Shown: positions 2,664 to 48,984 of the stretch, one piece after another
How positions within the stretch are numbered: the stretch's first letter is position 1
Layout of the letters: every line of letters begins with the position of its first letter
From: an archaeon
Lineage (GTDB): Archaea; Micrarchaeota; Micrarchaeia; Anstonellales; Anstonellaceae
Assembly: GCA_020056305.1 (NCBI GenBank)
Contig: JAGVIA010000016.1
Span: 1-50,133, forward strand
Direction of reading: 5' to 3'
Length of the DNA: 50,133 nucleotides
Notes under the pieces: model-generated
What the model was told of the DNA's origin: nothing
The model's database searches: none
What the model saw: only the letters and a program-made list of their open reading frames with translations
Position numbers and translations under genes: made by a program

Positions 2664-3347
2664 TTGAAAAATGGATGTGATTTGCTGGAACGTGTGGTGG
2701 CGGTGATGATGGCGCTTAACGAAGCGCCTGCCCTTCCCCTAGTGCTTGCTGGCCTGCGCGAGGCAAACGTCAGGCAGATCGTTCTCGTTGATGGCAATAG
2801 CACGGATGCGACTCCGGATATTGCAAGGGGCGCAGGCTGCACCGTGATTGCCCAGGAAGGGAAAGGAAAGGGGATGGCGTTCCGCACTTTCTTGGAGACA
2901 TACCCAATTGATCCGAATGCCCGCTACGTCATGCTGGACGCCGATGCGACATATGACCCCAAAGACGTTCCCAGGCTCGCAGAAAAGCTCGAAGAATATG
3001 ATATTGTCACCGGCCACCGCGCAACAGCTCACCTGATTCCAAACAATCTTACCCATTTTTTTGGGAACAAGCTAATCTCACTTGCGGCATTCCTCCTTTT
3101 CTGGCGCTGGAACCCGGACATATGCACGGGCTATTGGGCTTTCCGCGGTTCCGCCCTAAAAAAAATGCGCATCGATGCAACTCGCTTTGACCTAGAGGCG
3201 GATCTTTTCGCGCAGGCATGCAAAAAACACCTTTCGATGGGCATGGTAGACGTAATGTACGGCCCGCGGCTGGGGGAAAGGAAGCTGCGCAGCATAGACG
3301 CGCTGCACATCGTCTGGCGGCTCTTCTTTGAAAGATTTTCGGGCTGA
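2664..3347 (+). CDS. Family 2 glycosyltransferase (dolichyl-phosphate sugar synthase-like)
   Basis: 227-aa ORF with a GT-A pattern: VVAVMMALNEAP, VDGNSTD, and the DxD-like MLDADATYDP. The start is uncertain; the track start at 2664 is TTG. Confidence 0.8.
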   Translation: MKNGCDLLERVVAVMMALNEAPALPLVLAGLREANVRQIVLVDGNSTDATPDIARGAGCTVIAQEGKGKGMAFRTFLETYPIDPNARYVMLDADATYDPKDVPRLAEKLEEYDIVTGHRATAHLIPNNLTHFFGNKLISLAAFLLFWRWNPDICTGYWAFRGSALKKMRIDATRFDLEADLFAQACKKHLSMGMVDVMYGPRLGERKLRSIDALHIVWRLFFERFSG

Positions 3348-3361
3348 TGGGGCGGTTTTGT

Positions 3362-5179
3362 TCAATTGACTTTTAGCAGGACCAGAATGAAATCCTGGCC
3401 CTGTGAGGAATTGTACACGGAGAAGAGCTCCTGCGGAATCGCATTGAGCCGTTCCTGCGCCTCGGACTGGGGGTGGGCCGTGAAACAATAAGTGTCAAGC
3501 ATCACATACCCGTAACCGCGTTTTTTTAGGAATTCGTGGATTTCCGGCCATGTTTTTGACCAAGCAGCCCGCTTAAAGTCGGCATATTCCCTGGCAAATG
3601 GCTCTGCAAACATGTCAAAGGCCAGGACCTTGTTATCCGAGGAGCAGAGGGGGAATATCTTCGTGTTTTTCGGAAGGGCGTTCATCTGGCTGACAAATGC
3701 GTTCGCATCGTTGGCGGAAACAAACTCCACGCCAGGGGGCCAGTAGGAGGTCTGGACCGCATACTTCGCCTGCGCAGAAGTGAGCATGATGCCAACGAAT
3801 ATGGCGATAGCCGCCCCATAACGGAATTCGCGGGTTGAAAAGCGGGCAAGCATCCCTCTAATTGCAAACGCGCAAAAAATTGCAACTGGAATGGAAAGGA
3901 AGACCCAGAAGCGGTGCGGGAACAGTTTAAACGGAAGTGCGTTGCCTTGCGTGCCAAGGATTGCAAAAACCAGCCAGATGGCAGAGACTGCAAGATAAGT
4001 TTCCTCCGGCTGCAGGCGCTTCCGTATTTTCCACAAGCATGCAAAAAACCCGGCAATTGTCAATCCGGCAACAACCCAGCCTATGCCGGTTTCCTGGTCC
4101 ATCTTGCTGTACGGGAGCGGGAAAAGAAAGTCGTCAAGGGTGTAAATCACCCCGCCCGAGGTATCTGACATCCTATCCATGAACGTGCCGCTAAACGAGT
4201 AGAGGCCTATGCCATCAAGCGTTTTTTCACCGTATTTTAGATAGGTGGGAATCCAGTAAAGAGCAGTAGTGAGAATGATGCCCCCTACCCCGAATGCAAT
4301 GACTGGCCTAAGCAGTTTTCTGTCTTCCAGTACCCTGGCGGCTGCGGATATCCCTATCATTATGCACATTATTGCTGCGACTGATGGCTGCGCCACGACT
4401 AGCGCCGCCATTGCCACGGCAAACAAGTACTCGTATCTCTTCCCCTCGCCAATCTTCGCAAGCGCGTAGAGCGCCACGAACGACACTGCCATGGCAAGAG
4501 TCTGCGACCATATGAAGTGGGACATGAAAGACGGGAGGGCCGCAAGCACAAAAACCGAGTACAACCCGAGTTCCTGGCTTTTTGTGAATGCCTGGACAAA
4601 GTAGAACGCGAAGATGAGCACAAGCGATATCATGACTACGTTAAGCGCTTTTAGGGTCTCTATAACCGGGCTTCCAAACTGGTGCGCCATCGCCATCAAT
4701 ATGTCATACGTGGGCGGGTAAGGCTCAATGTAATAGCGCACGAAATTCTCCCTGTCAAAGTACCTGCTTGCCGTCTGCGTTTGCGCCACGTATTTGACCG
4801 CCGCCGCATGGACCCAGGGGTCGTCATCCTCAAGATATGGATACTTGAACGCGCCGTCATAATAGACCCAGAGATGGGCAATGGCGATTGCAACTACGAG
4901 CACCAGGAAAATCTCCTTGCGGAATTCGAATTTCGGAATCGAGAGGACATCCCGCTCGCCCTTGATGATGGCATACGCGGGATAGGCAAGTGCTAAGAGA
5001 AGGAATATCCACCAGGTAAGCGGAATGCCGGCCAGATTGAGCGCCACCGCAAGGACGCAAAATGCCGCCATGCCCGCGCCGATTGTCATGAGATTTTTTT
5101 CTTTGGTTATGGCAAACCCTAGGCCAAACATCGTTGCGAAAAACCACAGGATTGAAAGAGCCAAAGAAAGCGCCAACAC
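3362..5179 (-). CDS. GT-C fold (PMT/ArnT-like) membrane glycosyltransferase
   Basis: 605-aa ORF with more than 10 predicted TM helices. An acidic first-loop motif (YLEDDDPWVH) and a C-terminal soluble domain are present. No WWDYG motif was seen, so I do not call it AglB. The start codon at 5179 is GTG. Confidence 0.6.
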   Translation of the reverse strand: MLALSLALSILWFFATMFGLGFAITKEKNLMTIGAGMAAFCVLAVALNLAGIPLTWWIFLLLALAYPAYAIIKGERDVLSIPKFEFRKEIFLVLVVAIAIAHLWVYYDGAFKYPYLEDDDPWVHAAAVKYVAQTQTASRYFDRENFVRYYIEPYPPTYDILMAMAHQFGSPVIETLKALNVVMISLVLIFAFYFVQAFTKSQELGLYSVFVLAALPSFMSHFIWSQTLAMAVSFVALYALAKIGEGKRYEYLFAVAMAALVVAQPSVAAIMCIMIGISAAARVLEDRKLLRPVIAFGVGGIILTTALYWIPTYLKYGEKTLDGIGLYSFSGTFMDRMSDTSGGVIYTLDDFLFPLPYSKMDQETGIGWVVAGLTIAGFFACLWKIRKRLQPEETYLAVSAIWLVFAILGTQGNALPFKLFPHRFWVFLSIPVAIFCAFAIRGMLARFSTREFRYGAAIAIFVGIMLTSAQAKYAVQTSYWPPGVEFVSANDANAFVSQMNALPKNTKIFPLCSSDNKVLAFDMFAEPFAREYADFKRAAWSKTWPEIHEFLKKRGYGYVMLDTYCFTAHPQSEAQERLNAIPQELFSVYNSSQGQDFILVLLKVN

Positions 5180-5576: not shown

Positions 5577-6557
5577 TCACACCCTAACGTACAATGCAAG
5601 CGCAACCGCGGCGAAAATGCACTCTGTCGCAATCAGGGCAAGCACAAGCCCCTTCTCGCTTATGCCCCCGGATAGCTTCATCACGTACTGCACCACACCC
5701 GCCGGCCGCTTGTCGCAATACAACTTGCCATTGCGCAGCGTGCCAAATGTCTTTGGAAACCCATTTGCCGCTTTAATGAAAAAGTCTGCGATATACGGCA
5801 GCATAATTATCACACCGGCGCTCTCATAGCTTCCGGTTATCACCGCAGCCGCCACCCCTGCGCCAATCACAAGAGTGCCAACATCGCCTGGAAACGCCCT
5901 TGCAGGCGCCCAGTTGAATATGAGAAAGCCGCAAAGCGCTCCAAGCATGGAAAGCGAAATCACCGCCATGTCCGGTTGGTTTGCAAAAAACGCAATGAGC
6001 GAAAGCGCGGCAAACATGACTATTCCCATGCCCGCCTCAAGCCCATTGAAGCCGGCAAGCATGTTTGTCAGATTCGAACACACCGTGACTGCAAGGGGCA
6101 CCAGCAAGACGAGGTAGAATCCACCGAAATCAACCACGCCCAAAAACGGGAGCGTCATAGCAGTGCTTCCCGCAGACTGCACTGCAGCAAGCGGAATTGC
6201 CGAAACAATGGGCAAAAGCGCCTTTGTGCGCTGGCTCATGTCAAACAAATCATCGAAAATCCCAATAAGCGCAATTATGAGCATTGTGGTGAGCGTTGCC
6301 ATGAGAACAGGCACATTTATCCCAAGCCCAAGCTCTTTTTCAAAAAAAGTGTGCGCACCAATCACAAGCAGGAGCGCACCGACTGCGCCCATCACGATTG
6401 AGATGCCACCCATCTCCGGGATTTGGGGCGAGCCTGCCTTGTGCATGTCTTTCTCTGTTATGCCTGCAGCCCGCAGTTTCTCAATCAGCTTCGGGAGCGA
6501 AAGTGCGGCTATTGCAAATGCTGGCAGCACGGCGAATAGCACGTATGGCGGGAGCAT
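5577..6557 (-). CDS. UDP-GlcNAc:dolichyl-phosphate GlcNAc-1-phosphate transferase (MraY/WecA/AglH family, GT4)
   Basis: 326-aa polytopic ORF with family motifs IGIFDDLFD, NLTNMLAGFNGLEAG and FPGDVGTL. Confidence 0.85.
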   Translation of the reverse strand: MLPPYVLFAVLPAFAIAALSLPKLIEKLRAAGITEKDMHKAGSPQIPEMGGISIVMGAVGALLLVIGAHTFFEKELGLGINVPVLMATLTTMLIIALIGIFDDLFDMSQRTKALLPIVSAIPLAAVQSAGSTAMTLPFLGVVDFGGFYLVLLVPLAVTVCSNLTNMLAGFNGLEAGMGIVMFAALSLIAFFANQPDMAVISLSMLGALCGFLIFNWAPARAFPGDVGTLVIGAGVAAAVITGSYESAGVIIMLPYIADFFIKAANGFPKTFGTLRNGKLYCDKRPAGVVQYVMKLSGGISEKGLVLALIATECIFAAVALALYVRV

Positions 6558-12912: not shown

Positions 12913-13006
12913 AACTTGGCTTGGCATGCTTGCCGATATAAAACTTCTCATGCCCTGCCCAACCCCCCCAATTCGCATTAAATTCCTGCTTGCCAATTCT
13001 TTCCTC

Positions 13007-35273: not shown

Positions 35274-36416
35274 ATGCGGCAGATTTCAAAAAGCGCCCTC
35301 CTATTGCTCTTTTTCATCCCGCATCTTGCATTTTCCGCCTATTTTGCCCAGCCCGCATACCTTGCCGCATCAAGAATCGCCGGAAACCAAACATTCACCT
35401 ACCTCAATTTCACGCCCGACAATGTTTCCGCATATTATCTCGTGAGCATGGGCGGCGAGGAGAAATTCCTCGTCTGGGTGCACCCCGTGCTTCCGATGGA
35501 AGGCCTTTTTGTTGCCGCAGAGCCCGTGCTTGAGGAGAGCCATGCGGCGTCAATACTGGCACAAATGTATTCCTCAAACGGCGCAGATATTTCCGCCCTC
35601 TTGCAGCTTGGCCAAACGCACGCCCTCGTGCAAAAATTCTCCGCCTCGCGCAAAAGCGACGAGCGCAAGTGTGACATTTATCTCGGGCTTGATGAGCACA
35701 ACTGCACTGATTTTGATTCGTGCCAGAAGGCATGCTACAGCCGCACGTCATTCTGCCAGCCACTTGCCCTTGGCATCGGGCGGCCGCTTATTGGCGCAAT
35801 CATGAATTACTCCGATGGCAAGCGCAACATAACCTCTCTGCTTGAAACAGAGGAGGTAATTTACGCGCTGCTTATGGCAAACCAGAGCGCAGGGAATTTC
35901 GATGCCTACTGGCAGGCAGTGCTTGCAATCGATGCAAACGCCGGCAAAATCAATTCAAATCCCCTCTTCACCGCCTACCAGCTGTGCTACCCAATCAACG
36001 CAAGCGCGCTTTCCGCCGCAAAGCAGCTGCTTGCATCAATGCGCGCCAAGGCATACCCCCTTCTTGCAGTGAAAACGCGCGCCCGCGATTACACCGAATT
36101 TGCAAGGGCGCGCTGGAACAATTCGCTTCCAATCATAGTGCAGGGGGAAATTCCCGGGCGTGCAGGCGCATCCAATTTCTCCCTTATTCCGCTCGCACGC
36201 CAAGCCGGCGGCGCAGCCTTCATTGCAAACATGATTGGGCCATTTGATGAGAGCTCTCTTCAGCTCGCAGCCGCACTGGCGGCACTGTCCGGCGTCGGCA
36301 TAGGCATCGCAATGGCTGTCGCATACGCGATTGTGCGCCACAGCCCGCGCTCCGGCGGCGCATCCCGCAGCGCACGGCAAAAGCCGTCCTCCGCAAAGCC
36401 CGACGGAGCGCCATAA
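35274..36416 (+). CDS. Secreted, C-terminally anchored Cys-motif protein; paralogue A of the 42497 gene
   Basis: It has a signal-like MRQISKSALLLLFFIPHLAFSA and the conserved block KCDIYLGLDEHNCTDFDSCQKACYSRTSFCQPLALGIGRPLI. A C-terminal TM segment is present. Confidence 0.7.
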   Translation: MRQISKSALLLLFFIPHLAFSAYFAQPAYLAASRIAGNQTFTYLNFTPDNVSAYYLVSMGGEEKFLVWVHPVLPMEGLFVAAEPVLEESHAASILAQMYSSNGADISALLQLGQTHALVQKFSASRKSDERKCDIYLGLDEHNCTDFDSCQKACYSRTSFCQPLALGIGRPLIGAIMNYSDGKRNITSLLETEEVIYALLMANQSAGNFDAYWQAVLAIDANAGKINSNPLFTAYQLCYPINASALSAAKQLLASMRAKAYPLLAVKTRARDYTEFARARWNNSLPIIVQGEIPGRAGASNFSLIPLARQAGGAAFIANMIGPFDESSLQLAAALAALSGVGIGIAMAVAYAIVRHSPRSGGASRSARQKPSSAKPDGAP

Positions 36417-36447: not shown

Positions 36448-36459
36448 CATTTATAAACC
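36448..36459 (+). promoter_or_regulatory. Candidate TATA box for the giant surface-protein gene; implies a 5' UTR of about 100 nt
   Basis: catttataaacc lies about 130 nt upstream of the ATG at 36584. A gggggtg SD sits at 36571-36577. A 7-bp hairpin (atcgggg...ccccgat) lies in the leader. Confidence 0.35.
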
Positions 36460-36583
36460 GTATATCCGTATAGATGCCATGCATTCGGTTACTACGTCGT
36501 ATCGGGGAGCTTTTTCCCCCGATGCCGGAAAGTTCGGGAGGATTTTCCGCCGGTAGTTTCATGATAATTTGGGGGTGTCAGTT

Positions 36584-39500
36584 ATGAATTTCATGTCGAA
36601 AATGGCTGTTTTTGTGCTTGCTCTGGCAATGCTTGCGGGCGCGAATTTTGCCATGGCATACATACAAACCAACGCCACCGTCTTATCTGCGGACCGTACG
36701 GGCCTTGGATATACCAACCTCTCCACCTTCTATATAATTGAGGATATTGCAGGTCAGATAAACGTCACCAACGCCACCGCGAGAAACCTTTCAATCATCC
36801 TCCCGGTTGGATTGGAATTCAACACTGCCCTCACCGCTGGCTATATCGCGAACGTGACCACAGGCAACCTTAACTTCAGCGGCGGCTTTAACTATTCGAA
36901 CATCACGTATGTCGGCACCCGGCTGGCAATGCTTAGCAACTTTTCCGGCCCCACTGCAAATAATTCAACAATCGCCAGCCAAATCCGCATATTCGGCCTC
37001 CAGATTCGCGCCCCAGATGGAAATGGGACAGCAACAGTCACGAATCTTACAATAACCCTTAATGAGAGCATGTGGGTCTTAGGAGTCCTCGTGAACAGCA
37101 GCGTGAACATTACTAACATTTCCGTAACCAACGCAACAGTCGGAATTGTCAACATCACCCCTGGCAACTTCTCGAATGTGACATTAACACAAGTTACAAC
37201 ACTTGGATATGCTGGCTCTGCAGTCAACTTCACTGCACAGACGACAGACAGATACGGCAACACAAACGCCAGTGCATACACCCTGCGTGTCGCGTCAAAT
37301 TCAAGCAATGCAAGGTTCAGAGTCGACTCTGGTGCTTGGCTGAGCCTGCCCCAATACCTTGTAACCGCCTTGCCTAGCGGCCGCAAGATGTTCCAAATCA
37401 ATGACACCGTTAACGAAACAATAATGATATATGTAAACGGCACGAGCGGCGAAATCTTTGATTATGCAAGCGGCAACAGCTCCATGACACTATCAATCCT
37501 TACTGACAACGCCAGCATCATAAACAACCTAACTGCGGCAAACAAGACTGCGGGCACCCAATATGTCATCAGGGTCAATGTCACGGACATTTGGAATAAC
37601 GCCATAGCAGGCAAGCTCCTCAACATCTCAATCAACGGCTCAACCGCCACCGCGGCTCTTGCGAATGTGACTGGTGCCCTTGGCTTCAATTCATTCCTGT
37701 CCAACGGCACTGGTGGCGCCCCAAACGTGTCTGCCAGCACCCTCATCATAACGACGGATGCCAACGGCGTTGCAACAGCAACGCTCAACGTTTCGCAATT
37801 CGTGGGCGAAACAAACATCTCGATAAACATGACAAAAGGCGATGGCGGCGATAGCGTCTATAACTGGTCCCTAGTAACCATCAACAGCACTGACACCGAG
37901 GTGCCCTATCTTGTCACTGCCACCAATCTTGTCGCCGGCCAGTGGATTAAGGGCACATACAACCTCACTGGCAATGCGAGCGACAATGTCCGCGTGGGAA
38001 ATGTGACAATAAACATGAGCAACCTTTGGTCGTTTCCTGCAAACATCACATGGAACGGCTCGGACAACCGCGGCCAGAACATAAACTGGTCATACCTCAT
38101 TAACACGTCTCTTTTTGCAGATTCCGCCACGCTGCCAATAATAGTCAACGCATCAGACTCCAGCGGCAACCAGAATGTTTCGCTGATTGGAACACTGAGC
38201 ATTGACAACACCGTGCCCAACGTAAGTTATTATAACCGGGTCGGCGCGGCAGTCTCAAGCAACACCACTATTATGTACACGAATGCCAACCTCACAAACT
38301 ACATGGCAATCCTGATACTGGATCCGTCTTCGGGCGTGAACTCGTCAGGCGCCACTGCCTACTTGAGCTCGATAAACATCTCCTTCAACACCACTGGCGC
38401 ATACAACTACAGCATAACGAGCAACGCGGCAAACACCAGCCTCAACGTCACCATCAACGTGACCTTCCCGGTCACCGGCCTCTATGTAATGAACATGAAC
38501 ATAACCGACAACGCCGGCAACACGAACAGGACCCAGCGTTACTTCTACGTGGACATGGTTCCGCCGTTTGAGATAAACTTCACGAACATGGCGGCAATAA
38601 ACAACACTGCCGGGCTTGGGTTAAACATTACCAACGAAGCGAACATCACCATCGACCTGTCAATACAGGATGCGGTGAACATGTCAAACGAGACCGACAC
38701 CCTCAACGTCATAATACAGGTGAACAACAAGACGTCCGGCACCACTGCCTGCAACTTCTCAGCAATGAATGAGTTTGAGGTTGGCATAGTGAACGCATCC
38801 TGCGCGTTCAACATGTCCGGCGTCAACACGAACGGCGGCATCTACCAGATAAGCGCAATCGCATTTGACAGGGCGAACAACTCGCTTGTCGGCGTGCGCA
38901 TACTGGCAACCGGCAGCGCATACGCAGCCGCAACCGCTGCCAACCCGGTCAACATCTCAGGAAGCAGGGTGCAGATACTGGGCGCCAACACAACAGGCCT
39001 TGGCGGCGGCACGGTTTACATCAACCTGACCGTCAACTCAACATCTACTGCGTCACTGCCAAACATCCTGCGCAAGAAGTACCTGCTGAACTCGAGCCTT
39101 GCGGACAACTCGTTCCTGTTCAACATATCGTTCGCATACACGGCAAGCGAGCTTACCGAGCTTGGGATTTCGGATGAAAGCATGCTCGTGCCCATGTTCT
39201 ACAACACCACGTCAGCCAGATGGGAGCGCGTGCCCGGCTATGTCAACACCACCGACTTCACCGGCACTGACGCGCAGGGCAACAGCGTCGCATACGCAGG
39301 CAAGATAGTGATGACCAACCTCAAGCACTTCACCGAGTTCAGCGGCTTGGCAGGCGTTGAGGCAAACGTCACAAACTGCTCGGCAACGTATGGCAACGTG
39401 AGCAACTTTGTTGTGAACGGCACAGGGACAGTAGCGGGCATCGAGCACTGTGTGCTTGCATTCACCCTCTACAACCCGCTCAACCACGGCGTCAACCTGA

Positions 39501-41059
39501 CATGGGTGAACATCACGCTTGTCAACCTCTCTGTGGCAGACACGAATAACATCACAAACGTCACCCTCTACAATGATACCACATACCTAAACGGCACATT
39601 CGGCTACGGCCTGTTCGGCGCAGCAGTGACTGCCAACTTCTCAATAGACCCGGGCACGGTCGCAGGCGCCATAATACCGGCGGCAAGCTCCCGTACCTTC
39701 TATGTCAAATACAACATCAATCTCACTGCAACCGACAACAAGACTCTTGGCGCAATAATAGGCATCGGAGGGCTCAACATAACCAATGCCTCGGTGCCAG
39801 TAACCTTAAACGGCACCCTTGACGGATTGCGCAACGTTTCAACCGACATGTTCGCGCCGGTGTTCTTCAACAACGTCTCCACGAGCTGGAGAAACGTTTC
39901 CCAGTACGTCGGCGTAAACGTTTCGGACCTGCTGGCGCGCCAGAATGTCACAAGCGCAACCTACTGCACAGCCAGCAACGGAAACGGAAGCGGCGGAAGC
40001 TGCAACGCGTCAGCTGGCGCATCGTTCATAATTAACACTGCCTCGGGCTGCAACGGCCTTTCTGGCACATGCGCCAACGGCACGCTGGTGCTCAACCTGA
40101 CAAGCTCGGGCAACATCACGGTGAACATCACGGCAGTCGATTCGGCAGGCAACCGAAATAACTCGGTATTCTTCGTGCTTGTCGACCTCTCGGCACCGGA
40201 CATCACCAACCTCACGCCCGGTGACAACGCCATCGTGAACTCCTCGCCAACCGTTAACGCGCTGGCAACGGACACGGTGTCCGGCATTGCGAACCTTACC
40301 CTATACATAAACGGCTCGCAGGCAGGCAACAAGACCAACCTGTACAACGTGTCAGCCGCAGCTGGGGTTAACATCTTCAACTTTACCACGCTTGCAGGAG
40401 GCACGCACAACATAAGCCTTATCGCAGAGAATGGCGCAGGCAGCAGAACCAACCGAAGCTGGTCGTTCACAGTGAACGGCTCGTTTAGCCTCTGGGTGGT
40501 GATTGACCTCGCCTCGGGCTTCAACCTGATTGCGATACCGATGAACGTCACCAACAACTCGGTGAAGTCGGTGGTCTCGGGCATAAACGACAGCCTGGTG
40601 AATGTCTGGCACTATGACCCGACAAACGGCTACGTGGTGTACAACACCAACCAGAGCGTGCCCAACACCCTGACAAGCATCATACCGGGGCAGGCATACT
40701 TCCTGAACATGTCTGCGCCTGCCAACCTTACCATATACGGCTTCACGCCGAGCTTGGGCAGCGCGCCTGACTACCCGACAAGGGCGGCGTTCAGCCTCAT
40801 TGTTGGCTGGAACATGGTGGGCGCATTCATAAATGCAACAAACCCTGCCAACGGGTCTGCAATGGTGAACTCCTGCATGATGTTCAGGGACATAGGAGGC
40901 AGCACCCTCGTGACCGGGCTGACGGGCTACAACTCGTCAATGGGCTACTACAGTGTCATACAGTCGTCATCCCCCTGCCCGTCGTCGTCGCCGAACCTCG
41001 TGCAGGGCTGGGGCTACTGGACATACGCCAGCTCAGCAGGCACATACTACCAATACTAA
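36584..41059 (+). CDS. Giant secreted protein saturated with N-glycosylation sequons (candidate S-layer or outer surface-lattice protein)
   Basis: An ATG at 36584 follows an SD. The signal peptide is MNFMSKMAVFVLALAMLAGANFAMA. The protein is about 1491 aa with roughly 130 N-x-S/T sequons by my own eye count. It has no C-terminal TM segment and ends in an aromatic-rich motif (WGYWTYASSAGTYYQY). Confidence 0.8.
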   Translation: MNFMSKMAVFVLALAMLAGANFAMAYIQTNATVLSADRTGLGYTNLSTFYIIEDIAGQINVTNATARNLSIILPVGLEFNTALTAGYIANVTTGNLNFSGGFNYSNITYVGTRLAMLSNFSGPTANNSTIASQIRIFGLQIRAPDGNGTATVTNLTITLNESMWVLGVLVNSSVNITNISVTNATVGIVNITPGNFSNVTLTQVTTLGYAGSAVNFTAQTTDRYGNTNASAYTLRVASNSSNARFRVDSGAWLSLPQYLVTALPSGRKMFQINDTVNETIMIYVNGTSGEIFDYASGNSSMTLSILTDNASIINNLTAANKTAGTQYVIRVNVTDIWNNAIAGKLLNISINGSTATAALANVTGALGFNSFLSNGTGGAPNVSASTLIITTDANGVATATLNVSQFVGETNISINMTKGDGGDSVYNWSLVTINSTDTEVPYLVTATNLVAGQWIKGTYNLTGNASDNVRVGNVTINMSNLWSFPANITWNGSDNRGQNINWSYLINTSLFADSATLPIIVNASDSSGNQNVSLIGTLSIDNTVPNVSYYNRVGAAVSSNTTIMYTNANLTNYMAILILDPSSGVNSSGATAYLSSINISFNTTGAYNYSITSNAANTSLNVTINVTFPVTGLYVMNMNITDNAGNTNRTQRYFYVDMVPPFEINFTNMAAINNTAGLGLNITNEANITIDLSIQDAVNMSNETDTLNVIIQVNNKTSGTTACNFSAMNEFEVGIVNASCAFNMSGVNTNGGIYQISAIAFDRANNSLVGVRILATGSAYAAATAANPVNISGSRVQILGANTTGLGGGTVYINLTVNSTSTASLPNILRKKYLLNSSLADNSFLFNISFAYTASELTELGISDESMLVPMFYNTTSARWERVPGYVNTTDFTGTDAQGNSVAYAGKIVMTNLKHFTEFSGLAGVEANVTNCSATYGNVSNFVVNGTGTVAGIEHCVLAFTLYNPLNHGVNLTWVNITLVNLSVADTNNITNVTLYNDTTYLNGTFGYGLFGAAVTANFSIDPGTVAGAIIPAASSRTFYVKYNINLTATDNKTLGAIIGIGGLNITNASVPVTLNGTLDGLRNVSTDMFAPVFFNNVSTSWRNVSQYVGVNVSDLLARQNVTSATYCTASNGNGSGGSCNASAGASFIINTASGCNGLSGTCANGTLVLNLTSSGNITVNITAVDSAGNRNNSVFFVLVDLSAPDITNLTPGDNAIVNSSPTVNALATDTVSGIANLTLYINGSQAGNKTNLYNVSAAAGVNIFNFTTLAGGTHNISLIAENGAGSRTNRSWSFTVNGSFSLWVVIDLASGFNLIAIPMNVTNNSVKSVVSGINDSLVNVWHYDPTNGYVVYNTNQSVPNTLTSIIPGQAYFLNMSAPANLTIYGFTPSLGSAPDYPTRAAFSLIVGWNMVGAFINATNPANGSAMVNSCMMFRDIGGSTLVTGLTGYNSSMGYYSVIQSSSPCPSSSPNLVQGWGYWTYASSAGTYYQY

Positions 41060-41069
41060 GCCTGCCCCC

Positions 41070-41092
41070 TTTCTTTTTTATTTTTTTAATTC
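41070..41092 (+). terminator. T-rich tract after the giant gene (terminator or attenuator candidate)
   Basis: tttctttttta tttttttaat tc starts 11 nt after the stop. A near-duplicate motif occurs at 42409-42429. Confidence 0.4.
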
Positions 41093-41116
41093 ATGTTCCA
41101 TCTGGAGGTGCGATTA

Positions 41117-42403
41117 ATGCGATTGAATATTTTGGCTCTTTTGCTGCTTTCCCTTGCGGCAGTTTCATTTGCACAGGCAGCACTGCCACAAAGCCACTAT
41201 TTCTTTGGCAACATAACCGCCGACACCGGCGTCAGCATGCTGGGGCAGACTCTCACTGCGACAGTGGGCGCAACATCCACGACCGCAACGACGGCAGTGA
41301 CAACTGCGCCTGACGGCACAACATACAACTACAACGTCATGGTCAACCGCGCACCCGGCGACACTACAAATACTACGGTTCTCTTCTCGATAAACAGCTA
41401 CAATTTCATGAACAGCACGTTTGTGCATTTAGGCAGGACGCACCTTAACGGCCAGTTCCCGGCTGCGCAGCTTCCGGTTACCCCCACACCATCAACTCCA
41501 CCTGGCACCGGCGGCAGCACTGGCGGCTCAAGCGGCACCGGCTCTGGCGGGGGCGCGGCAGGCGGCGCTGGCGCAACGGGCAGCGGCTCATCAGCAAACA
41601 CTGTTTCAGTTGACATTGGCGGCGGCACAAGCTGCAACATCTCCGTTACCCGCGAGATAAACAGCGGCTCAGGCAGGACCGAGCTGACTACGACGCTGCA
41701 GAACAACGGCGGGGGCGCCTGCACCATTTCCGCATTTGACATTGCGGACACGTTCCCGGAGAACTTCACGACCGACCTGTCTGAAGTCAATTTCTCAATA
41801 AATCCGGCATCCAAGTCCGGCCAGATCGCAACCTGGCGTTTCTACCAATTCCGCCCGGGCGAGTCAATCATACTCATCTACACCTTCCCGCGCGAGATAG
41901 CCCCGGCAAAGATACGCGAGTGGGGCCTTCCAACAATAACCCTGCAGGCTGGCGTCGCGCCCGAGGGCGGCATTGTGACGCTTGATGTGGCATCGACCGG
42001 AGTCATCGGCATGCCAATCACAATAACGGTAAAGAAGGGCGGCGTGCCCCTTGCAGGCGCAACAATCGAGATTACCACGCCCCAGCGCCAGAAAATCACC
42101 CTTGTGGCAGGTCCTGACGGCACTGTTTCATTCACGCCAACTCTTGCTGGCACATACACCTATGCAGTGCCTGGCTACACGCTTGCTGCAGCTGTTTCTA
42201 CATCTGTTTTGACAGAGGCTGCGCCGCCGCCAACACCAGCCCCAACCCCAGGTCCAACCCAGCTGCCTCCGGAGCAGCCTCCTGCGCCGGCGCAAGGCTT
42301 CCCCTGGCTCACAATAGTGCTTGTTGTGGCAGGCATTGCAGTAATAGGCGCGGTTGCCTGGGCAGCGCTTGTCTACTTCAAGGGCAGGAAAAAGGGCATC
42401 TAA
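41117..42403 (+). CDS. Secreted protein with a P/T/G/S linker, a beta-sandwich-like domain and a C-terminal TM anchor (candidate membrane stalk partner)
   Basis: A ggaggtg SD lies upstream of the ATG at 41117. The signal peptide is MRLNILALLLLSLAAVSFAQA. The linker is PVTPTPSTPPGTGGSTGGSSGTGSGGGAAGGAGATGSGSS. A CarboxypepD_reg-like segment (GVPLAGATIEITTP...GPDGTVSFTPTLAGTYTY) is present. The C-terminus is WLTIVLVVAGIAVIGAVAWAALVYFKGRKKGI. Confidence 0.75.
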   Translation: MRLNILALLLLSLAAVSFAQAALPQSHYFFGNITADTGVSMLGQTLTATVGATSTTATTAVTTAPDGTTYNYNVMVNRAPGDTTNTTVLFSINSYNFMNSTFVHLGRTHLNGQFPAAQLPVTPTPSTPPGTGGSTGGSSGTGSGGGAAGGAGATGSGSSANTVSVDIGGGTSCNISVTREINSGSGRTELTTTLQNNGGGACTISAFDIADTFPENFTTDLSEVNFSINPASKSGQIATWRFYQFRPGESIILIYTFPREIAPAKIREWGLPTITLQAGVAPEGGIVTLDVASTGVIGMPITITVKKGGVPLAGATIEITTPQRQKITLVAGPDGTVSFTPTLAGTYTYAVPGYTLAAAVSTSVLTEAAPPPTPAPTPGPTQLPPEQPPAPAQGFPWLTIVLVVAGIAVIGAVAWAALVYFKGRKKGI

Positions 42404-42408
42404 GCGCC

Positions 42409-42429
42409 CTTCCTTTTTTATTTTAATTC
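42409..42429 (+). terminator. T-rich tract after the 41117 gene, followed by a 9-bp hairpin
   Basis: The tract reads cttcctttttta ttttaattc. A hairpin follows: attccgcat-(13 nt)-atgcggaat (42425-42455). Confidence 0.4.
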
Positions 42430-42496
42430 CGCATAGCGCAAGCAATAATGCGGAATGCCAAGAAGCAATAAAAAGGCGAATCCCAAATCAATATCC

Positions 42497-43663
42497 ATGC
42501 GGCATTTTCCAATCGCGCTCTCAATCGCATTTCTCTGCCTGCCCATTTTCGCGTCAGCAGAATATGACGGCGTCGCAGGGGCCCTCATTTTCCAGATGCT
42601 CCTGCCAAACGAGACATTCTCATATTCCAATTTCACAGAGGGCGAAGTTGCCTACTACCTGGTCAGCATAGGCGGCACTGAGCGCTTTTTGGTGCGCGTA
42701 GGGCCCGTCCCGCCTGAGGGAAGGGGGCAGCCGCTGCTTGCCGCAGAGCCGGTCCTCGAAGCCTCCTCTGCTGTTGCGGCGCTGAAAAAAATACGCTGGC
42801 AAAACGGCTCCAATCTCTCAGAGCTTGACAAGCTCGAATCAATACACCTGCTAATAGCGGCGTTCGAGTCCTCCCGCACTCCAGGCGAGCACAAGTGCGA
42901 CATCCTGATTGGAATGGACGAGCACCACTGCATCGACTTTGAGTCGTGCCAGAAATCCTGCTACAGCCGCACGTCATTTTGCCAGCCCCTTGCCCTTGGC
43001 ATCGGAAGGCCGCTAATCGAGGCGATGTTTGACTACTCCAACGGCACCAAGAATCTCACACTGCTTCTTGCAGAGGAGGACGCCCGCCATGCCGCCCTCT
43101 CCTCGCAAAGAACAGCCCAGAACCTTGATGACTACCTATCCACTCTCACTGCAATAAATGTGCAGGCGACGAAAATAAACAACAACATGGTCTTTTACGG
43201 CTACCAGATATGCTTCCCTCCAAACTATGACATGGCATCGCTTACGCGCGCCAAGCTTGAGCTGCTTTCAATCTACGCAAAGGCAATACCAATCCTGCGG
43301 GCTGACGAGGAGGGCAGGCAGATGGCTGAATCTGCAAGCTCCCGCTATCGGGCCGGTGGCGAGCGCAATGTTGTGCCAGAAAAGCAAACTGCGCCCCAAA
43401 TTCCAAACGGCGGCGGAACGAATGGCACAAACGTTTCCATCAACGCATCTGAAAACAAAACAATTGCCAATGGCATCCCAAGCACGGCTGGCGTTCCCTC
43501 CAATGCAATGGCGCCAGGCGCCTCTTCGGCTTCCAGCGGCGCGCAAAGCCAGCTTATACTGATTTCGGCTGCGCTAGTGCTTGCACTGCTAGGCGCGGCG
43601 TATTTCCTTGTTGCCAAAAAGAAAAGCAAAAGCGCAAAGCAAGAAATGCCAAAGAAGAAATAA
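42497..43663 (+). CDS. Secreted, C-terminally anchored Cys-motif protein; paralogue B of the 35274 gene
   Basis: It has a signal-like MRHFPIALSIAFLCLPIFASA and the block KCDILIGMDEHHCIDFESCQKSCYSRTSFCQPLALGIGRPLI. A C-terminal TM segment and a Lys-rich tail are present. Confidence 0.7.
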   Translation: MRHFPIALSIAFLCLPIFASAEYDGVAGALIFQMLLPNETFSYSNFTEGEVAYYLVSIGGTERFLVRVGPVPPEGRGQPLLAAEPVLEASSAVAALKKIRWQNGSNLSELDKLESIHLLIAAFESSRTPGEHKCDILIGMDEHHCIDFESCQKSCYSRTSFCQPLALGIGRPLIEAMFDYSNGTKNLTLLLAEEDARHAALSSQRTAQNLDDYLSTLTAINVQATKINNNMVFYGYQICFPPNYDMASLTRAKLELLSIYAKAIPILRADEEGRQMAESASSRYRAGGERNVVPEKQTAPQIPNGGGTNGTNVSINASENKTIANGIPSTAGVPSNAMAPGASSASSGAQSQLILISAALVLALLGAAYFLVAKKKSKSAKQEMPKKK

Positions 43664-43765: not shown

Positions 43766-46270
43766 ATGGCAAAAATACGCACCGGGATAATAGGCGTCGG
43801 CAACTGCTTTGCAGGGCTTGCGCAGGGAATCGAATTCTACAAGAGGCAGCCGGAAAAGAAAGTGGTCGGGCTGATGCACGAGAAAATAGGCGGCTATTCC
43901 TGGGAAGACCTGGAATTCTCCTGCGCGTTCGACGTTGGCAAGTCAAAGGTCGGCCTGCCCCTGCACAAGGCGATATACGCCGAGCCAAACCTGGTTTTCT
44001 GGCTAAAGGATCTTCCAAAGTCAGACACCATTGTGATGGAAGCCCCGGTGCTTGACGGCGTTGGCATCTGGGTGCAGAACAAGGTGGACCCGATTAAAAG
44101 CAAAAAAACAGACGCGCAGCTCCGCAAGGAGATAATTGCCGAAATAAAGCGCACGAAGACCGAAATACTTGTCAATTACCTGCCTGTCGGCTCGCAGAAA
44201 TCCACGGAGTTCTGGGCGCAAATTGCCCTTGAATGCGGCTGCGCGTTTGTGAACTGCATCCCGGTTTTCATCGCAAGCGATGCGGCATGGGAAGCCAAAT
44301 TCAAAAAAGCAGGAGTGCCACTTATCGGCGACGACATAAAGGCTCAGGTGGGCGCAACAATAGTGCACCGCACGCTCGCAAGATTGTGCGACGACAGGGG
44401 AGCAAGAATAATTAAAACATACCAAATTAACATTGGCGGAAACAGCGTTGCCGGCGACCAGGAAATACTGCTGGTGCAAAATGGAAAACTCGCGCGGGCA
44501 AGAATAGGCGATTTTGTGGACAGAATGATGGCGGTATACGGCCAACGCAGGGCGGATGGGAAGGAAGAAGTCGACACGTCTGCAACGGGCCAAAAGATTG
44601 AGTGCTTTACCATAGATGAAAATTTCAACGCGGTCACTGCGGAAGTCTCTCACCTCGTAAGGCATTCGCTGAACAATGAACTCTACGAAATCGAAACTAG
44701 CGAAGGAAGGAAAATCAAGATAACCGCAGACCACAACGTGTTTGTCCTAAATGAAGATGGCGGGCTTCTGGAAGCCCCCATCTCAAAGCTCAAAGAAAAG
44801 GAAAGCATGATAGCCGTGCCCTGCCGCCTGCCAATGCAAATGGGGCGCGAGCCTGTCTCAATCAGCCTGCTTCCATACGCAAAAGACCTGTTTGCTCAGG
44901 GCATAGACTCAAACGGCAACATCAAAGTCCACAACCATCCGGAAATGAAAATACCAATGGAGCTTCAAATAACCGACGAGCTTCTCCAGATAAGCGGGCT
45001 TTGGCTTGCAGACGGCAGCTTTGACCGCGAAGGCTCAAGCAACTTGGAGATTGCCTGCGGAAACGACGAAGAGTGCATGGATTTGATAGATGATTTTGCA
45101 TCTGCGTACAACATCAACTACCAAGTAAGGGGGCAAAAGCAGGTTGCAGTGCGCCTGATGTCAAAAACCATGTCAAAAATATTCCGCCTGGCGCTGGGAT
45201 TAGGCGGCAATTCCTACACCAAGCGCGTGCCAGACTGGTTCTTCAGCCTATCCGAGAGGCATATCGCACTTGTGCTTCGCGGCTACATGAGCGGCGATGG
45301 CACCGTAACCGGCAGGCAGATTCGCTGGACAACCGCATCCGAGGGCCTGGCAGAGGACATGCGCACGCTCCTTCTGCGCCTGGGCATAAACTCCTCAACA
45401 TTCAGAGAGGATTACTCGCACAAGGCAGGCAAAAGCTCATACAAGACAAACCTGCCATACATAACGCACGGCATAATATCCTCGAAAGAGGATGCGGAAA
45501 GATTCATCGAGAAGGTAGGTTTCATCCAGTCCAGCAAAAACCAGAAAGCGCTTGCAGCTGCGGCCACGCTCACAAAGGGCAATACGCATCTCATCCCCGC
45601 AATAGGGCTTCTCTCGGAATCCGGCATAAAATCTTCAAATCCGCATAACCCGCCATCGCTGCGCGCGCATACTGTCCTCTCCCAACTGGACGGGGTGCAG
45701 GACTTGAACACCAAGGGCAAAATAAGGAACATGTGCAACGCAGACACGCGCTTTCTAAAGATAAAATCCATTCGCAGGCTTCCCCCCAAGCAGCAGTATG
45801 TCTACGATCTGTCCGTGCCCGGCTACCAGCGCTTTGTCTGCTCAAACATCCTTGTGCACAATACCGATTTCCTCAACATGAAGGAGCAGGAGCGGCTTGC
45901 CTCAAAGCGCATAAGCAAAACCGAATCAGTGCAAAGCCAGCTGCGCGAGCGCCTTCCGCCTGAAAACATCTACATAGGCCCGTCTGATTTCATCCCTTTT
46001 TTGGGCAACACAAAAATAATGTTCATGAGGATAGAAGGCCACATGTGGGCTGACATCCCGTTCAACATGGAAGTGCGCCTTGAAGTGGATGACAAGGCGA
46101 ATTCAGCTGGCGTTGTCATTGATGCTGTGCGCTGCGCAAAGCTTGCCTTGGAGCGAAAGCAGGGCGGCGCAATCATCCCGACCTCTGCATATTTCATGAA
46201 GCACCCGCCGGTGCAGATGACCGACCCAAAAGCAATGGAAGAGACGGAGAAATTCATAATGGGGAAATAG
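43766..46270 (+). CDS. myo-Inositol-1-phosphate synthase (archaeal short type) interrupted by an intein
   Basis: The N-extein is MAKIRTGIIGVGNCFAGLAQGIEFY...YQINIGGN. The C-extein is TDFLNMKEQERLASKRISKTESVQS... The exteins sum to 361 aa, a normal length for archaeal MIPS. Confidence 0.85.
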   Translation: MAKIRTGIIGVGNCFAGLAQGIEFYKRQPEKKVVGLMHEKIGGYSWEDLEFSCAFDVGKSKVGLPLHKAIYAEPNLVFWLKDLPKSDTIVMEAPVLDGVGIWVQNKVDPIKSKKTDAQLRKEIIAEIKRTKTEILVNYLPVGSQKSTEFWAQIALECGCAFVNCIPVFIASDAAWEAKFKKAGVPLIGDDIKAQVGATIVHRTLARLCDDRGARIIKTYQINIGGNSVAGDQEILLVQNGKLARARIGDFVDRMMAVYGQRRADGKEEVDTSATGQKIECFTIDENFNAVTAEVSHLVRHSLNNELYEIETSEGRKIKITADHNVFVLNEDGGLLEAPISKLKEKESMIAVPCRLPMQMGREPVSISLLPYAKDLFAQGIDSNGNIKVHNHPEMKIPMELQITDELLQISGLWLADGSFDREGSSNLEIACGNDEECMDLIDDFASAYNINYQVRGQKQVAVRLMSKTMSKIFRLALGLGGNSYTKRVPDWFFSLSERHIALVLRGYMSGDGTVTGRQIRWTTASEGLAEDMRTLLLRLGINSSTFREDYSHKAGKSSYKTNLPYITHGIISSKEDAERFIEKVGFIQSSKNQKALAAAATLTKGNTHLIPAIGLLSESGIKSSNPHNPPSLRAHTVLSQLDGVQDLNTKGKIRNMCNADTRFLKIKSIRRLPPKQQYVYDLSVPGYQRFVCSNILVHNTDFLNMKEQERLASKRISKTESVQSQLRERLPPENIYIGPSDFIPFLGNTKIMFMRIEGHMWADIPFNMEVRLEVDDKANSAGVVIDAVRCAKLALERKQGGAIIPTSAYFMKHPPVQMTDPKAMEETEKFIMGK
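44444..45862 (+). mobile_element. Intein (473 aa) with a LAGLIDADG-type homing-endonuclease domain
   Basis: It starts with Ser (SVAGDQEILLV, block A). Block B is a TxxH (KITADHNVFV). Two LAGLIDADG-like motifs are present (GLWLADGSF and RGYMSGDGTV). It ends VYDLSVPGYQRFVCSNILVHN, followed by Thr at +1. Confidence 0.85.
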
Positions 46271-47436: not shown

Positions 47437-48984
47437 TTATCCAGCCTGCTTGTAAAGAAGGCCTCTTCCTTTTTGCGTAAGGCGGTAAAATACGAATTTC
47501 TTGCCCGGCTCCTCCATGCGCTCAACAAGCCCGGCATCAATGAGCTTGTCAAGGTGCTCAACAATAGTCGCCTTGCTCCGCTTCAGCCTCCTGCTCAAGT
47601 CTGTTGGTATCTTTTCGCTTTGCACAAGCTCGTTTAGTATGCCAAGCCTAGTCTCGTTCATGAGCATGCGCGTGGACTCCACCTGCTCGGCAGCAGGCGC
47701 GCGGAACATGAGCACCGCAATCAGTGCAAGCGCAATTGCAAATACTGCGATAACTGGCGCAATAATCGCCAGCGGAAACTCATCCTTTTTCTGCCCAGAA
47801 GCTGCATCGGCAGCGCTTTTGTCAGCCATGCCAAATGCAGGCACGCCTAACTTCTCCGAGCCCACATCCCCTGTTTCCTGCGCAGGCTGCGGAGCCCGTG
47901 CAGGCGTTTCCACCTGCGGCACTGCACCAGTGCCTGACCGGAACCCGCTGTCGGAAAACAACACCGAGCCGTCCGTCGCATCAATGACAACGCGCGCGTC
48001 AATAGGCCTGTAGCGCTCGCCTTGATAATTGCCCTTTTGGCCGAACACCCATGCAAGCCTCATCCTGCCATTTTGGTAATCATACCAGTATGCAAGCACC
48101 GAATCCATGCCGGCTGCATCAAAATAGCCCCCCCATTCTGATGCGCTGCCTATGGCTGTAAGCCTTGCATTGCCCTCTGCAATGGCAGGCGTTGTCCCAA
48201 GCAGCGCAAAATCAAAGTATCTGGCACTGTCGCATTGGCTCTTTGCAATTCCCTGCGGCACTACCAGATAGCATAGCCCCTGCATTTTTCCATTAAGGAA
48301 ATGTGCCTTTGCCTCGTACATCAGAATCGGGATGCCCTTGTATTGTTGGGCAAAGAAAACAGTTGACACTTCCCGCCCGCTGCAGTTCTCGTACCTCACT
48401 CCGCTCACTTCAGTTGAAAGCCCGTTTCCAGAAAGGTTTGAAATTGAAAATCCGTTCGGGTTGAGCAACCCCTCAACAAACGAGATTTTGTTGCCAGCCG
48501 GGAGCGTTGAATCGCATACGGCGGGTTTGGGCGGCGTTGCCGAAGACGCATCAAGGCAGTTGCCAACAATTGAGAAATTGGGCGCGTTATCTATGTGCAT
48601 CCACGAAAGCGGAAACACGAATTCTTGTTCTGGCGAATTAAGCTCAACAGACCTGTAATAGGTATCCGGGGTCCTGTAATTAGTCACATTCCAAACCTCA
48701 ATCTGCTTCTGGCCATAGGCTAGGTCGAATACGGCATTTCCATCAACTGCTGTTTTGGCGTTCCTAGTTCCAAGAAGACGCCCATCAGCAGCTTCTGTGA
48801 CCTTTACATCTGCGTTTGCTATGCACTGGCCTGTGGAATTGTCAATTACCCTTACAACGAGTGTTCCATGCAAAGACGGAGGTGGCGCGTCTTCACTCCC
48901 GTTTCCTTCCACCAGCTGTGCCGTTGCTGCTTGCAGCATGAGCAGCATGCTAAGAAAAATCACGAGGAGGTCTCTTTTTACCAT
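47437..48984 (-). CDS. Single-pass membrane protein with an extracytoplasmic domain and a cytoplasmic C-terminal ArsR-like wHTH
   Basis: The signal peptide is MVKRDLLVIFLSMLLMLQAATAQ. A CarboxypepD_reg-like segment (GTLVVRVIDNSTGQCIANADVKVTE...DGNAVFDL) is present. The TM segment is LAIIAPVIAVFAIALALIAVLMF. It is followed by ETRLGILNELVQSEKIPTDLSRRLKRSKATIVEHLDKLIDAGLVERMEEPGKKFVFYRLT. Confidence 0.75.
   Translation of the reverse strand: MVKRDLLVIFLSMLLMLQAATAQLVEGNGSEDAPPPSLHGTLVVRVIDNSTGQCIANADVKVTEAADGRLLGTRNAKTAVDGNAVFDLAYGQKQIEVWNVTNYRTPDTYYRSVELNSPEQEFVFPLSWMHIDNAPNFSIVGNCLDASSATPPKPAVCDSTLPAGNKISFVEGLLNPNGFSISNLSGNGLSTEVSGVRYENCSGREVSTVFFAQQYKGIPILMYEAKAHFLNGKMQGLCYLVVPQGIAKSQCDSARYFDFALLGTTPAIAEGNARLTAIGSASEWGGYFDAAGMDSVLAYWYDYQNGRMRLAWVFGQKGNYQGERYRPIDARVVIDATDGSVLFSDSGFRSGTGAVPQVETPARAPQPAQETGDVGSEKLGVPAFGMADKSAADAASGQKKDEFPLAIIAPVIAVFAIALALIAVLMFRAPAAEQVESTRMLMNETRLGILNELVQSEKIPTDLSRRLKRSKATIVEHLDKLIDAGLVERMEEPGKKFVFYRLTQKGRGLLYKQAG

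Follow-up and report, generated by a model that had tools for sequence, protein, structure and literature searches.

Sequon saturation of a large predicted envelope protein encoded on an archaeal contig

Background

Why should a protein of almost 1500 residues present an N-glycosylation sequon (N-x-S/T) about every 11 positions? The question is raised by an open reading frame (ORF) in a 50,133-nucleotide stretch of archaeal DNA (positions 1 to 50,133 of contig JAGVIA010000016.1, assembly GCA_020056305.1), referred to below as the window. A preliminary description, made by reading the sequence and its translation, had counted roughly 130 sequons by hand in the product of this ORF. We analysed the encoded protein, hereafter called the target, together with its neighbours. 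We consider it probable that the target is exported by the Sec pathway, glycosylated by the oligosaccharyltransferase AglB and composed of several all-beta domains, forming an envelope protein with a dense glycan coat that is held by neighbouring proteins through its C-terminal module.

36584..41059, + strand: coding sequence of the sequon-saturated target, from ATG 36584 to TAA 41057-41059, 1491 amino acids (aa).

Sequon enrichment and its specificity

A scripted count gave 132 N-x(not P)-S/T sequons (68 NxT and 64 NxS) in 1491 aa, i.e. 1 per 11.3 residues, so that the hand count of about 130, or one per 11 residues, was accurate. The density had also been called far beyond chance for such a composition. 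In composition-preserving shuffles of the target (n = 5000), 41.0 +/- 5.4 sequons were obtained with a maximum of 63, which places the observed value at z = 17, and a first-order Markov control agreed with this result (45 +/- 6, maximum 66). The sequon frequency thus exceeds what the Asn, Ser and Thr content would give: the overall enrichment is 3.2-fold, and 67% of the 197 Asn residues fall in sequons.

The enrichment belongs to the motif and to its direction, and not to composition alone, because the reversed motif S/T-x-N occurs at chance level (39 observed vs 41 expected). D-x-S/T and Q-x-S/T are found at about 1x expectation, N-x-[AG], N-x-[VIL] and N-x-x-S/T lie below expectation, and N-P-S/T is absent. 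The composition is as had been described, rich in Asn (13.2%), Thr (11.3%) and Ser (10.1%), with D+E+K+R amounting to 7.5% only and few charged and sulphur-containing residues. The mature polypeptide has a mass of about 154 kDa and a pI of 4.7.

Sequons had been reported along the whole chain. This holds for every module of the protein (1 per 9.6-11.9 residues) except the signal peptide, which has none, and the C-terminal 192 aa, where the density falls to 1 per 21. The stretch NITNISVTNATVGIVNITPGNFSNVT, quoted in the preliminary description, is present in the translation, and 21 sequon pairs are spaced 3-4 residues apart; the spacings show no periodicity. Around the sequons, V/I/L/F occupy 50% of the -1, 55% of the +1 and 42% of the +3 positions, compared with 34% overall. 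As read from the sequence, the arrangement is that of an amphipathic beta-strand with Asn and Ser/Thr side chains on its outer face, and a beta-sandwich could therefore carry such a sequon density.

The other proteins of the window provide a control. In 10 cytoplasmic proteins, 9% of the Asn residues fall in sequons, with an observed/expected ratio of 0.84, whereas in 5 unrelated exported proteins the fraction rises to 29-59%, with a ratio of about 3. The corresponding values for the target are 67% and 3.2. The target thus matches the rate over expectation of the exported proteins, and stands out by pairing this rate with 13% Asn. This comparison of cytoplasmic with exported proteins supports glycosylation as the probable selective force.

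Gene model and expression signals

The limits given earlier for the gene, ATG 36584 to TAA 41057-41059 with a product of 1491 aa, were retained. The first possible start codon is TTG 36569, and ATG 36584 is preferred to it because a Shine-Dalgarno-like GGGGGTG sits 5 nt ahead of this ATG. The following signals surround the gene:

36451..36458, + strand: TATA-box-like TTTATAAA, with an A-rich stretch before it, about 125 nt upstream of the start codon.
36572..36578, + strand: Shine-Dalgarno-like GGGGGTG.
41064..41084, + strand: T-rich, putatively terminator-like element GCCCCCTTTCTTTTTTATTTT, directly past the stop codon.

The TATA-like TTTATAAA is a candidate archaeal promoter and would imply a 5' leader of about 100 nt, with a predicted 5' end near 36480; the leader folds no better than its shuffles (z = -1.4). 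A second copy of the 21-nt T-rich element, 90% identical, is found at 42404-42424 past the stop codon of the next gene. Both genes probably share it as a terminator, and it might at the same time serve as TATA region for the gene that follows. Scans of the window for Rfam families and tRNAs returned nothing.

The target has the strongest C-ending synonymous codon bias of the window, and its GC content at third codon positions (0.70) is the highest among 27 genes. AAC is used for 84% of the corresponding residues as compared with 56% in the other genes, GGC for 76% (53%), TTC for 77% (54%) and GAC for 74% (55%). The GC content of the gene agrees with that of the contig, and 1491 codons are stop-free at 53% GC. 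We read the codon bias as a probable sign of translational selection, which would suggest high expression. The preliminary description had also ascribed long open antisense frames to this bias. The longest reach 194 and 216 aa, which lies inside the expectation from codon-order shuffles and resembles the other long genes of the window, and these frames were discarded as a special feature.

Domain organisation

Domain scans were done per segment, whole-protein Pfam and NCBIfam scans having given nothing. The modules obtained are:

36584..36658, + strand: Sec-type signal peptide MNFMSKMAVFVLALAMLAGANFAMA, recognised by hydropathy and K in the n-region, with A-M-A then predicted cleavage and Y next; no sequons.
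36659..37891, + strand: N-terminal 411 aa, beta-rich, 43 sequons (1 per 9.6), with sub-threshold Pfam matches.
37892..38203, + strand: immunoglobulin (Ig)-like segment 1, aa 437-540, beginning D-T-E-V-P and ending ASDSSGNQNVSLIGTLSID; weak Big_7 match (E = 0.009) and signature.
38204..38551, + strand: Ig-like segment 2, aa 541-656; Big_3_2 (E = 1.7e-4), PKD (E = 0.02) and signature.
38552..38953, + strand: Ig-like segment 3, aa 657-790; signature GGIYQISAIAFDRANN, no Pfam match of its own.
38954..39844, + strand: middle region, aa 791-1087 (297 aa), 25 sequons, no family recognised.
39845..40183, + strand: Ig-like segment 4, aa 1088-1200; signature NITVNITAVDSAGNRNNSVFFVLVD, then LSAP.
40184..40480, + strand: Ig-like segment 5, aa 1201-1299; Pfam Big_7 bacterial Ig domain (E = 3.3e-8).
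40481..41056, + strand: C-terminal 192 aa, sequons 1 per 21, aromatic-rich tail GWGYWTYASSAGTYYQY, no family.

The cleavage site after A-M-A is predicted from the A-x-A rule. The N-terminal 411 aa contain strands of the D-x-x-G-N / TDANGVATATL type, which resemble Big_1/macroglobulin-like domains. All their Pfam matches are sub-threshold (HA70_C 9e-4, Big_1 0.05, MG4 0.2) and a PDB sequence search with this region gave no match, so that the assignment is tentative.

Five segments open with D-x-x-x-P (aa 437, 541, 657, 1088 and 1201), and their aligned ends share G-x-Y-x-I-x-x-x-A-x-D-x-[AS]-[GN]-N. The D-x-[AS]-[GN]-N motif is found 4 times in the target vs 0.28 expected, three of the four being followed by D-x-x-x-P at a fixed distance. 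The profile built from the five segments matches the BIg domains of SiiE (PDB 2yn3) with E = 2e-4, via the shared signature strand. The Big_7 match on aa 1201-1299 reaches 34.5 bits and exceeds the gathering score of 24.1, and Big_3_2 on segment 2 remains just below its own (22.2 bits for 23.3). On these motifs and matches, the target comprises one Big_7 domain and four segments bearing the BIg signature. The suggestion of a repeated Ig-like array is thus supported for five segments, one of them above the Big_7 gathering score. The segments are too diverged to detect one another (self-BLAST, phmmer), and the other parts of the chain give sub-threshold matches or none. Neither DNA tandem repeats nor long direct repeats were found in the gene, and an internal duplication in the C-terminal part was non-significant (E = 0.07). 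Two single-sequence AlphaFold2 models had pLDDT values of 34 and 38 and consisted mostly of strands according to DSSP; they were unusable.

The absence of a transmembrane (TM) anchor, noted from the outset, was upheld with a 19-residue hydropathy threshold of 1.6. Past the signal peptide only aa 1300-1319 exceeds it, and this sole passing stretch is marginal (mean 1.67) and contains an internal Asp. The C-terminal 192 aa have neither a TM helix nor a hydrophobic tail resembling a sorting signal. They include the earlier quoted WGYWTYASSAGTYYQY, as the translation confirms, and form a candidate contact or anchoring module.

Comparison with known surface proteins

As an exported, N-glycosylated archaeal envelope protein rich in Ig-like domains, the target would belong to a known kind. 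Two things set it apart: its sequons are three to four times as dense as the highest value on record for archaeal S-layer proteins, at a level kept up over almost 1500 residues, and it is a complete orphan. The SlaA protein of S. acidocaldarius has 31 sequons in ~1400 aa, which was called a remarkable glycosylation density (PMC2948927, PMC5744192, PMC10903991), and 27 of these 31 bear glycans (PMC10903991). Sulfolobales proteins generally have about 1 site per 30-40 residues, also termed remarkably high, and Ns. viennensis 1 per 240 (PMC12153357). The statement that the density is unusual even among archaeal S-layer proteins is therefore in line with the published figures. SlaA resembles the target in length (~1400 vs 1491 aa), Sec signal peptide, lack of an anchor of its own, beta-sandwich/Ig-like multidomain architecture and a membrane-anchored protein encoded alongside. 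It differs by its density of 1 sequon per ~45 residues vs 1 per 11, and no sequence similarity was detected between the two. The N-glycosylation of SlaA is heavy and its glycan shield has been modelled, a feature that the target would share. Moreover, SlaB has a coiled-coil and the anchored neighbours of the target do not.

Closer in lineage, the surface proteins of Nanobdella aerobiophila, a DPANN archaeon, are 900-1300 aa long with 15-52 predicted sites, and contain several Ig-like folds (bioRxiv 10.1101/2023.10.27.564410). MJ1_0160 (a putative S-layer protein) and MJ1_0451/0701/0776 share with the target export, Ig-like domains, sequon richness and, probably, a DPANN origin. With 1 site per 25-67 residues they are 2-6 times less dense, and no pectin-lyase or lectin fold was detected in the target. 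The SLP_Mh protein of 'Ca. Micrarchaeum harzensis' is a glycosylated 101-kDa S-layer protein with recognisable S-layer domains and phylum-wide homologues (bioRxiv 10.1101/2021.04.28.441871). Like the target it comes from what is probably the same phylum and is exported; it is glycosylated and highly abundant, with an unclear mode of anchoring. It contains N- and C-terminal S-layer domains and a TIGR01567-like domain, none of which is matched by the target: homology to the SLP_Mh family was found neither in NCBIfam (including TIGRFAMs) nor with phmmer, which returned the query only.

The adhesin SiiE of Salmonella shares with the target the signature G-x-Y-x-I-x-V-x-A-x-D-x-A-G-N ... D-x-x-x-P. 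This giant bacterial protein binds Ca2+, is not glycosylated, leaves the cell through a type I system and has 53 near-identical repeats, whereas the segments of the target are diverged and sequon-saturated. HIV-1 Env gp120 carries about 1 sequon per 20 residues over ~500 aa; its surface is mostly covered by N-glycans and carbohydrate makes up about half of its mass. The target has nearly twice this density over three times the length, a functional analogy without evolutionary relationship.

Search for relatives

Word-indexed searches of 5.8 billion proteins recovered the query alone with the whole target and nothing besides the query with its C-terminal 199 aa. An exhaustive phmmer search of 1.84 billion representative proteins with aa 1-1200 likewise returned only the query. 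Scans of genome, viral and metagenome contigs and a tblastn search against plasmids and phages found no relative of the target, and PDB sequence searches with the whole target and with three parts of it gave no match in a database that includes SlaA structures. Look-ups of contigs by the exact sequence of the target and of its neighbour yielded no entry.

Downstream of the target and its neighbours lies a myo-inositol-1-phosphate synthase gene, and 106 archaeal loci around this gene were collected (1.12 Mb, 852 ORFs of at least 200 aa). Neither the target nor its neighbours have a relative in any of them. The densest of the 852 ORFs has 1 sequon per 33 residues, the median being 1 per 300. The synthase of the window shares 77% identity with its counterpart in 'archaeon DeMMO2_26' (locus L001) and ~60% with those of Micrarchaeota, Aenigmatarchaeota and Bathyarchaeia metagenome-assembled genomes (MAGs), and the genes downstream of it are syntenic with DeMMO2_26 and with a Micrarchaeota MAG. 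With a FlaI-like ATPase that is 51% identical to a Micrarchaeota MAG protein, these few marker similarities make a DPANN/Micrarchaeota-related origin of the contig likely. At the site corresponding to the target, DeMMO2_26 has instead a Cys-rich protein of 1157 aa and a coiled-coil protein of 2128 aa. The former (L001 22-3495, +) is extremely Cys-rich, belongs to no obvious family and lies where the window has its sequon-rich cluster. Judging from these loci, the target sits in a variable region, which seems to be a hotspot for lineage-specific large envelope proteins.

Proposed mechanism and alternative explanations

In the mechanism that we propose, the target would leave the cell via Sec and its signal peptide would be cut after A-M-A. 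The archaeal oligosaccharyltransferase would then N-glycosylate many of the 132 sequons at the outer face of the membrane, while the chain is still unfolded. The sequons would come to lie in amphipathic beta-strands, where hydrophobic residues at -1, +1 and +3 would put the Asn and Ser/Thr side chains toward solvent, and Ig-like beta-sandwich domains could in this way tolerate nearly saturated exposed faces. With an occupancy like that of SlaA and a glycan of ~1.1 kDa, some 125-145 kDa of carbohydrate would be added. The glycan mass would then about equal the 154-kDa chain and might form a continuous coat, presumably with a protective function. Having no anchor, the target would be retained through its sequon-poor C-terminal module by at least one of three adjacent membrane-anchored proteins.

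Several points weigh against this proposal. Expression and glycosylation of the target are predicted from its sequence. No AglB/STT3 gene was recognised within the 50 kb, and the closest relative, DeMMO2_26, has no target gene at the syntenic position. No homologue that could bear on conservation was found anywhere searched. The closely spaced sequons may not all be usable. With the AlphaFold models unusable, the evidence for an all-beta build consists of motifs and a single Pfam domain, and the taxonomic placement is drawn from a few marker similarities.

That the target might be a spurious long ORF rather than a genuine gene deserves practically no credence. Its lack of homologues would fit, but 1491 stop-free codons at 53% GC, a Shine-Dalgarno-like site combined with a signal peptide and a terminator-like element, a Pfam Big_7 domain above its gathering score, and a directional motif enrichment with strong synonymous codon bias effectively refute it. 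Could the N-x-S/T motifs be a structural by-product, unrelated to glycosylation, of Asn ladders or of the alternating polar and hydrophobic strands of a beta-helix or beta-sandwich? The sequons do fall within alternating hydrophobic/polar strands, and stretches like VNITNISVTNATV appear repeat-like. An i/i+2 pattern of this origin should, however, be symmetric, whereas S/T-x-N stays at 39 vs 41 and N-x-S/T is enriched 3.2-fold; N-P-S/T is missing, sequon spacing lacks periodicity, and unrelated exported proteins of the window are equally enriched while cytoplasmic ones are not. Whole-protein and segment Pfam scans for a parallel beta-helix gave no PbH1 or Beta_helix match, and no ~22-residue repeat was seen. 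The beta-helix or Asn-ladder explanation was rejected on the directionality of the motif, and a purely structural origin in general is very unlikely since the motif is directional and its enrichment is export-specific in the same genome fragment. Release of the target into the medium as a soluble glycoprotein, for instance of an extracellular matrix or biofilm, agrees with a signal peptide accompanied by neither anchor nor sorting signal. We find it improbable: the gene sits amid a cluster of genes for membrane-anchored surface proteins, no enzymatic domain was detected, and the cost of a protein of such size and composition would argue for its retention.

Two further possibilities concern the role of the protein at the cell surface. 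The proposal of a retained, glycan-coated envelope protein has a narrower form, in which the target would be the lattice-forming outer S-layer subunit, in the role of SlaA, with a neighbouring membrane protein as SlaB-like anchor. We hold this form to be rather doubtful. Its 1491 aa, missing anchor, acidic pI, few charged or sulphur-containing residues and Ig-like domains fit SlaA-type subunits (PMC10903991); a codon bias stronger than that of any other gene in the window points to very high expression, the next gene downstream specifies a protein with signal peptide, stalk and C-terminal TM helix, and the sequon-poor C-terminus could serve as contact surface. On the other hand, Pfam, NCBIfam and segment scans gave no S-layer family match (TIGR01567 / DUF1608, S_layer_N/C), the downstream protein has no coiled-coil of the SlaB kind, and a surface saturated with glycans would spare little bare protein for lattice contacts. 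The gene is also absent from the syntenic locus of the closest relative and has no homologue even in other Micrarchaeota, while the known Micrarchaeum S-layer protein has homologues throughout the phylum (bioRxiv 10.1101/2021.04.28.441871). Alternatively, the target could be a fibre or adhesin that forms no lattice, on a DPANN cell that depends on a host. Its Ig-like domains would project from the cell in a row and serve attachment or masking toward host or viruses, and its glycans would act as ligands or camouflage. We can give this possibility tentative consideration only. The BIg signature is common to giant bacterial adhesins such as SiiE, the gene is lineage-specific and occupies a variable region flanked by conserved genes, as is usual for interaction proteins that evolve fast, and a role in symbiosis has been proposed for Ig-like N. 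aerobiophila surface proteins with 36-52 sequons (bioRxiv 10.1101/2023.10.27.564410). Pfam scans revealed, however, no lectin, enzymatic or known adhesive tip domain, the strong codon bias suits a bulk structural protein better than a low-copy adhesin, and the host-dependent lifestyle is itself presumed. We consider the two about equally likely: codon bias and architecture speak for an S-layer subunit, and a non-lattice fibre, adhesin or glycocalyx component is favoured by the missing S-layer domain, the variable locus and the lack of homologues in related genomes.

A bolder version of the envelope-protein proposal, which we think unlikely, would make the target the most densely N-glycosylated large protein yet described. 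Mucin-like, with a glycan mass of at least that of the 154-kDa chain, it would envelop a small and perhaps host-dependent archaeon in a continuous coat of the glycocalyx type, in place of a conventional S-layer or on top of one, and the rewriting of its surface into sequons would have erased its homology to Ig-domain ancestors. 

The target is a striking quantitative outlier, and its biological meaning depends on glycoproteomic confirmation. If the sites are occupied, the target would raise the known limit of N-glycan density for folded proteins, and it would be a natural test case both for the activity of the archaeal oligosaccharyltransferase on sequons only 3-6 residues apart and for the folding of beta-sandwiches glycosylated at almost all exposed strand positions. 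An envelope protein that is presumably abundant and bears more than 100 glycans per molecule would also mean a large sugar demand. As cultivated Micrarchaeota appear incapable of making activated sugars themselves (bioRxiv 10.1101/2021.04.28.441871), construction of the envelope would then be tied to host supply. More generally, divergence driven by composition can hide a major envelope protein from homology searches, and motif-density scans are for this reason a useful complement for finding archaeal surface proteins.

Neighbouring genes

Three genes for membrane-anchored proteins surround the target gene:

35274..36416, + strand: upstream neighbour, 380 aa, with signal peptide, Cys-rich ectodomain and C-terminal TM helix.
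41093..42403, + strand: downstream neighbour, 436 aa, with signal peptide, Gly/Ser/Thr linker, beta domain, Pro-rich stalk, TM helix and basic tail.
42455..43663, + strand: paralogue of the upstream neighbour, 402 aa, with signal peptide and C-terminal TM helix.

The beta domain of the 436-aa protein gave weak prealbumin/filamin-like matches, and no coiled-coil was found in the protein; its adjacency makes it a candidate membrane anchor partner of the target. The products of 35274-36416 and 42455-43663, which bracket the target and the downstream neighbour, are 45% identical with six invariant Cys. They have 10 sequons each, vs 1.9 and 2.8 expected, respectively. The pair strictly conserves the block SCQKxCYSRTSFCQPLAxGIGRPLI. 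This family has no Pfam match and only one outside member (P0004) among the 5.8 billion proteins, and scans of genome, viral and metagenome contigs added no further member. A 3.5-kb metagenome contig encodes P0004 and, immediately after it, a synthase that lacks the intein. Since P0004 also adjoins the synthase gene, the downstream paralogue is the ancestral neighbour of that gene.

Other features of the window

Three genes of the window may be related to glycan assembly or transfer:

2664..3347, + strand: GT2 glycosyltransferase (E = 1.6e-14).
3362..5179, - strand: 605-aa orphan with multiple TM helices and, as read from its sequence, a DDD motif (YLEDDDPW) past the early ones.
5577..6557, - strand: Glycos_transf_4 family protein of the AglH / GlcNAc-1-P-transferase type (Pfam E = 6e-36).

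The Glycos_transf_4 family performs the first step of dolichol-linked glycan assembly, and the product of 5577-6557 may play this dolichol-pathway role here. The occurrence of this gene and of the GT2 gene on the contig of the target speaks for the proposed glycosylated envelope protein. The 605-aa orphan has no Pfam, NCBIfam or PDB match; as a guess, it could be a very divergent GT-C enzyme, e.g. an oligosaccharyltransferase. Other genes of the window are archaeal and encode a RecJ/GAN-type nuclease, a FlaI/VirB11-type ATPase and a membrane pyrophosphatase, as well as RtcA, DUF63, Drg GTPase and inositol-1-phosphate synthase.

The synthase gene (43766-46270, +) carries a 473-aa LAGLIDADG intein at ~44444-45862, with Ser1 ... 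His-Asn | Thr+1 at its ends and inserted in the conserved GGN|TDF motif. The orthologues in DeMMO2_26 and on the P0004 contig are intein-free (361 aa), and a full-text literature search found no paper on inteins in inositol-1-phosphate synthase.

Three proteins encoded on the opposite strand were also noted. The product of 8869-13062 (-), ~1360 aa long and rich in Ala and Glu, is a predicted coiled-coil that carries a signal peptide as well as a C-terminal TM helix and basic tail. It matches no family and could be a long envelope stalk or spacer. The 2128-aa coiled-coil protein of DeMMO2_26 (L001 3543-9929) is its analogue. The 515-aa product of 47437-48984 (-) combines a signal peptide, a sequon-enriched extracellular part, a TM helix and a cytoplasmic winged helix of the ArsR/MarR type, and looks like a membrane-tethered one-component regulator. 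A counterpart with 45% identity is encoded in L001 beside the synthase and CDP-alcohol transferase genes. Finally, the secretion ATPase of the FlaI/VirB11/TadA type (20800-23283, -) is unusually long (827 aa) and is 51% identical to a Micrarchaeota MAG protein (L006 5170-7539) encoded 2.5 kb from the synthase gene of that MAG.

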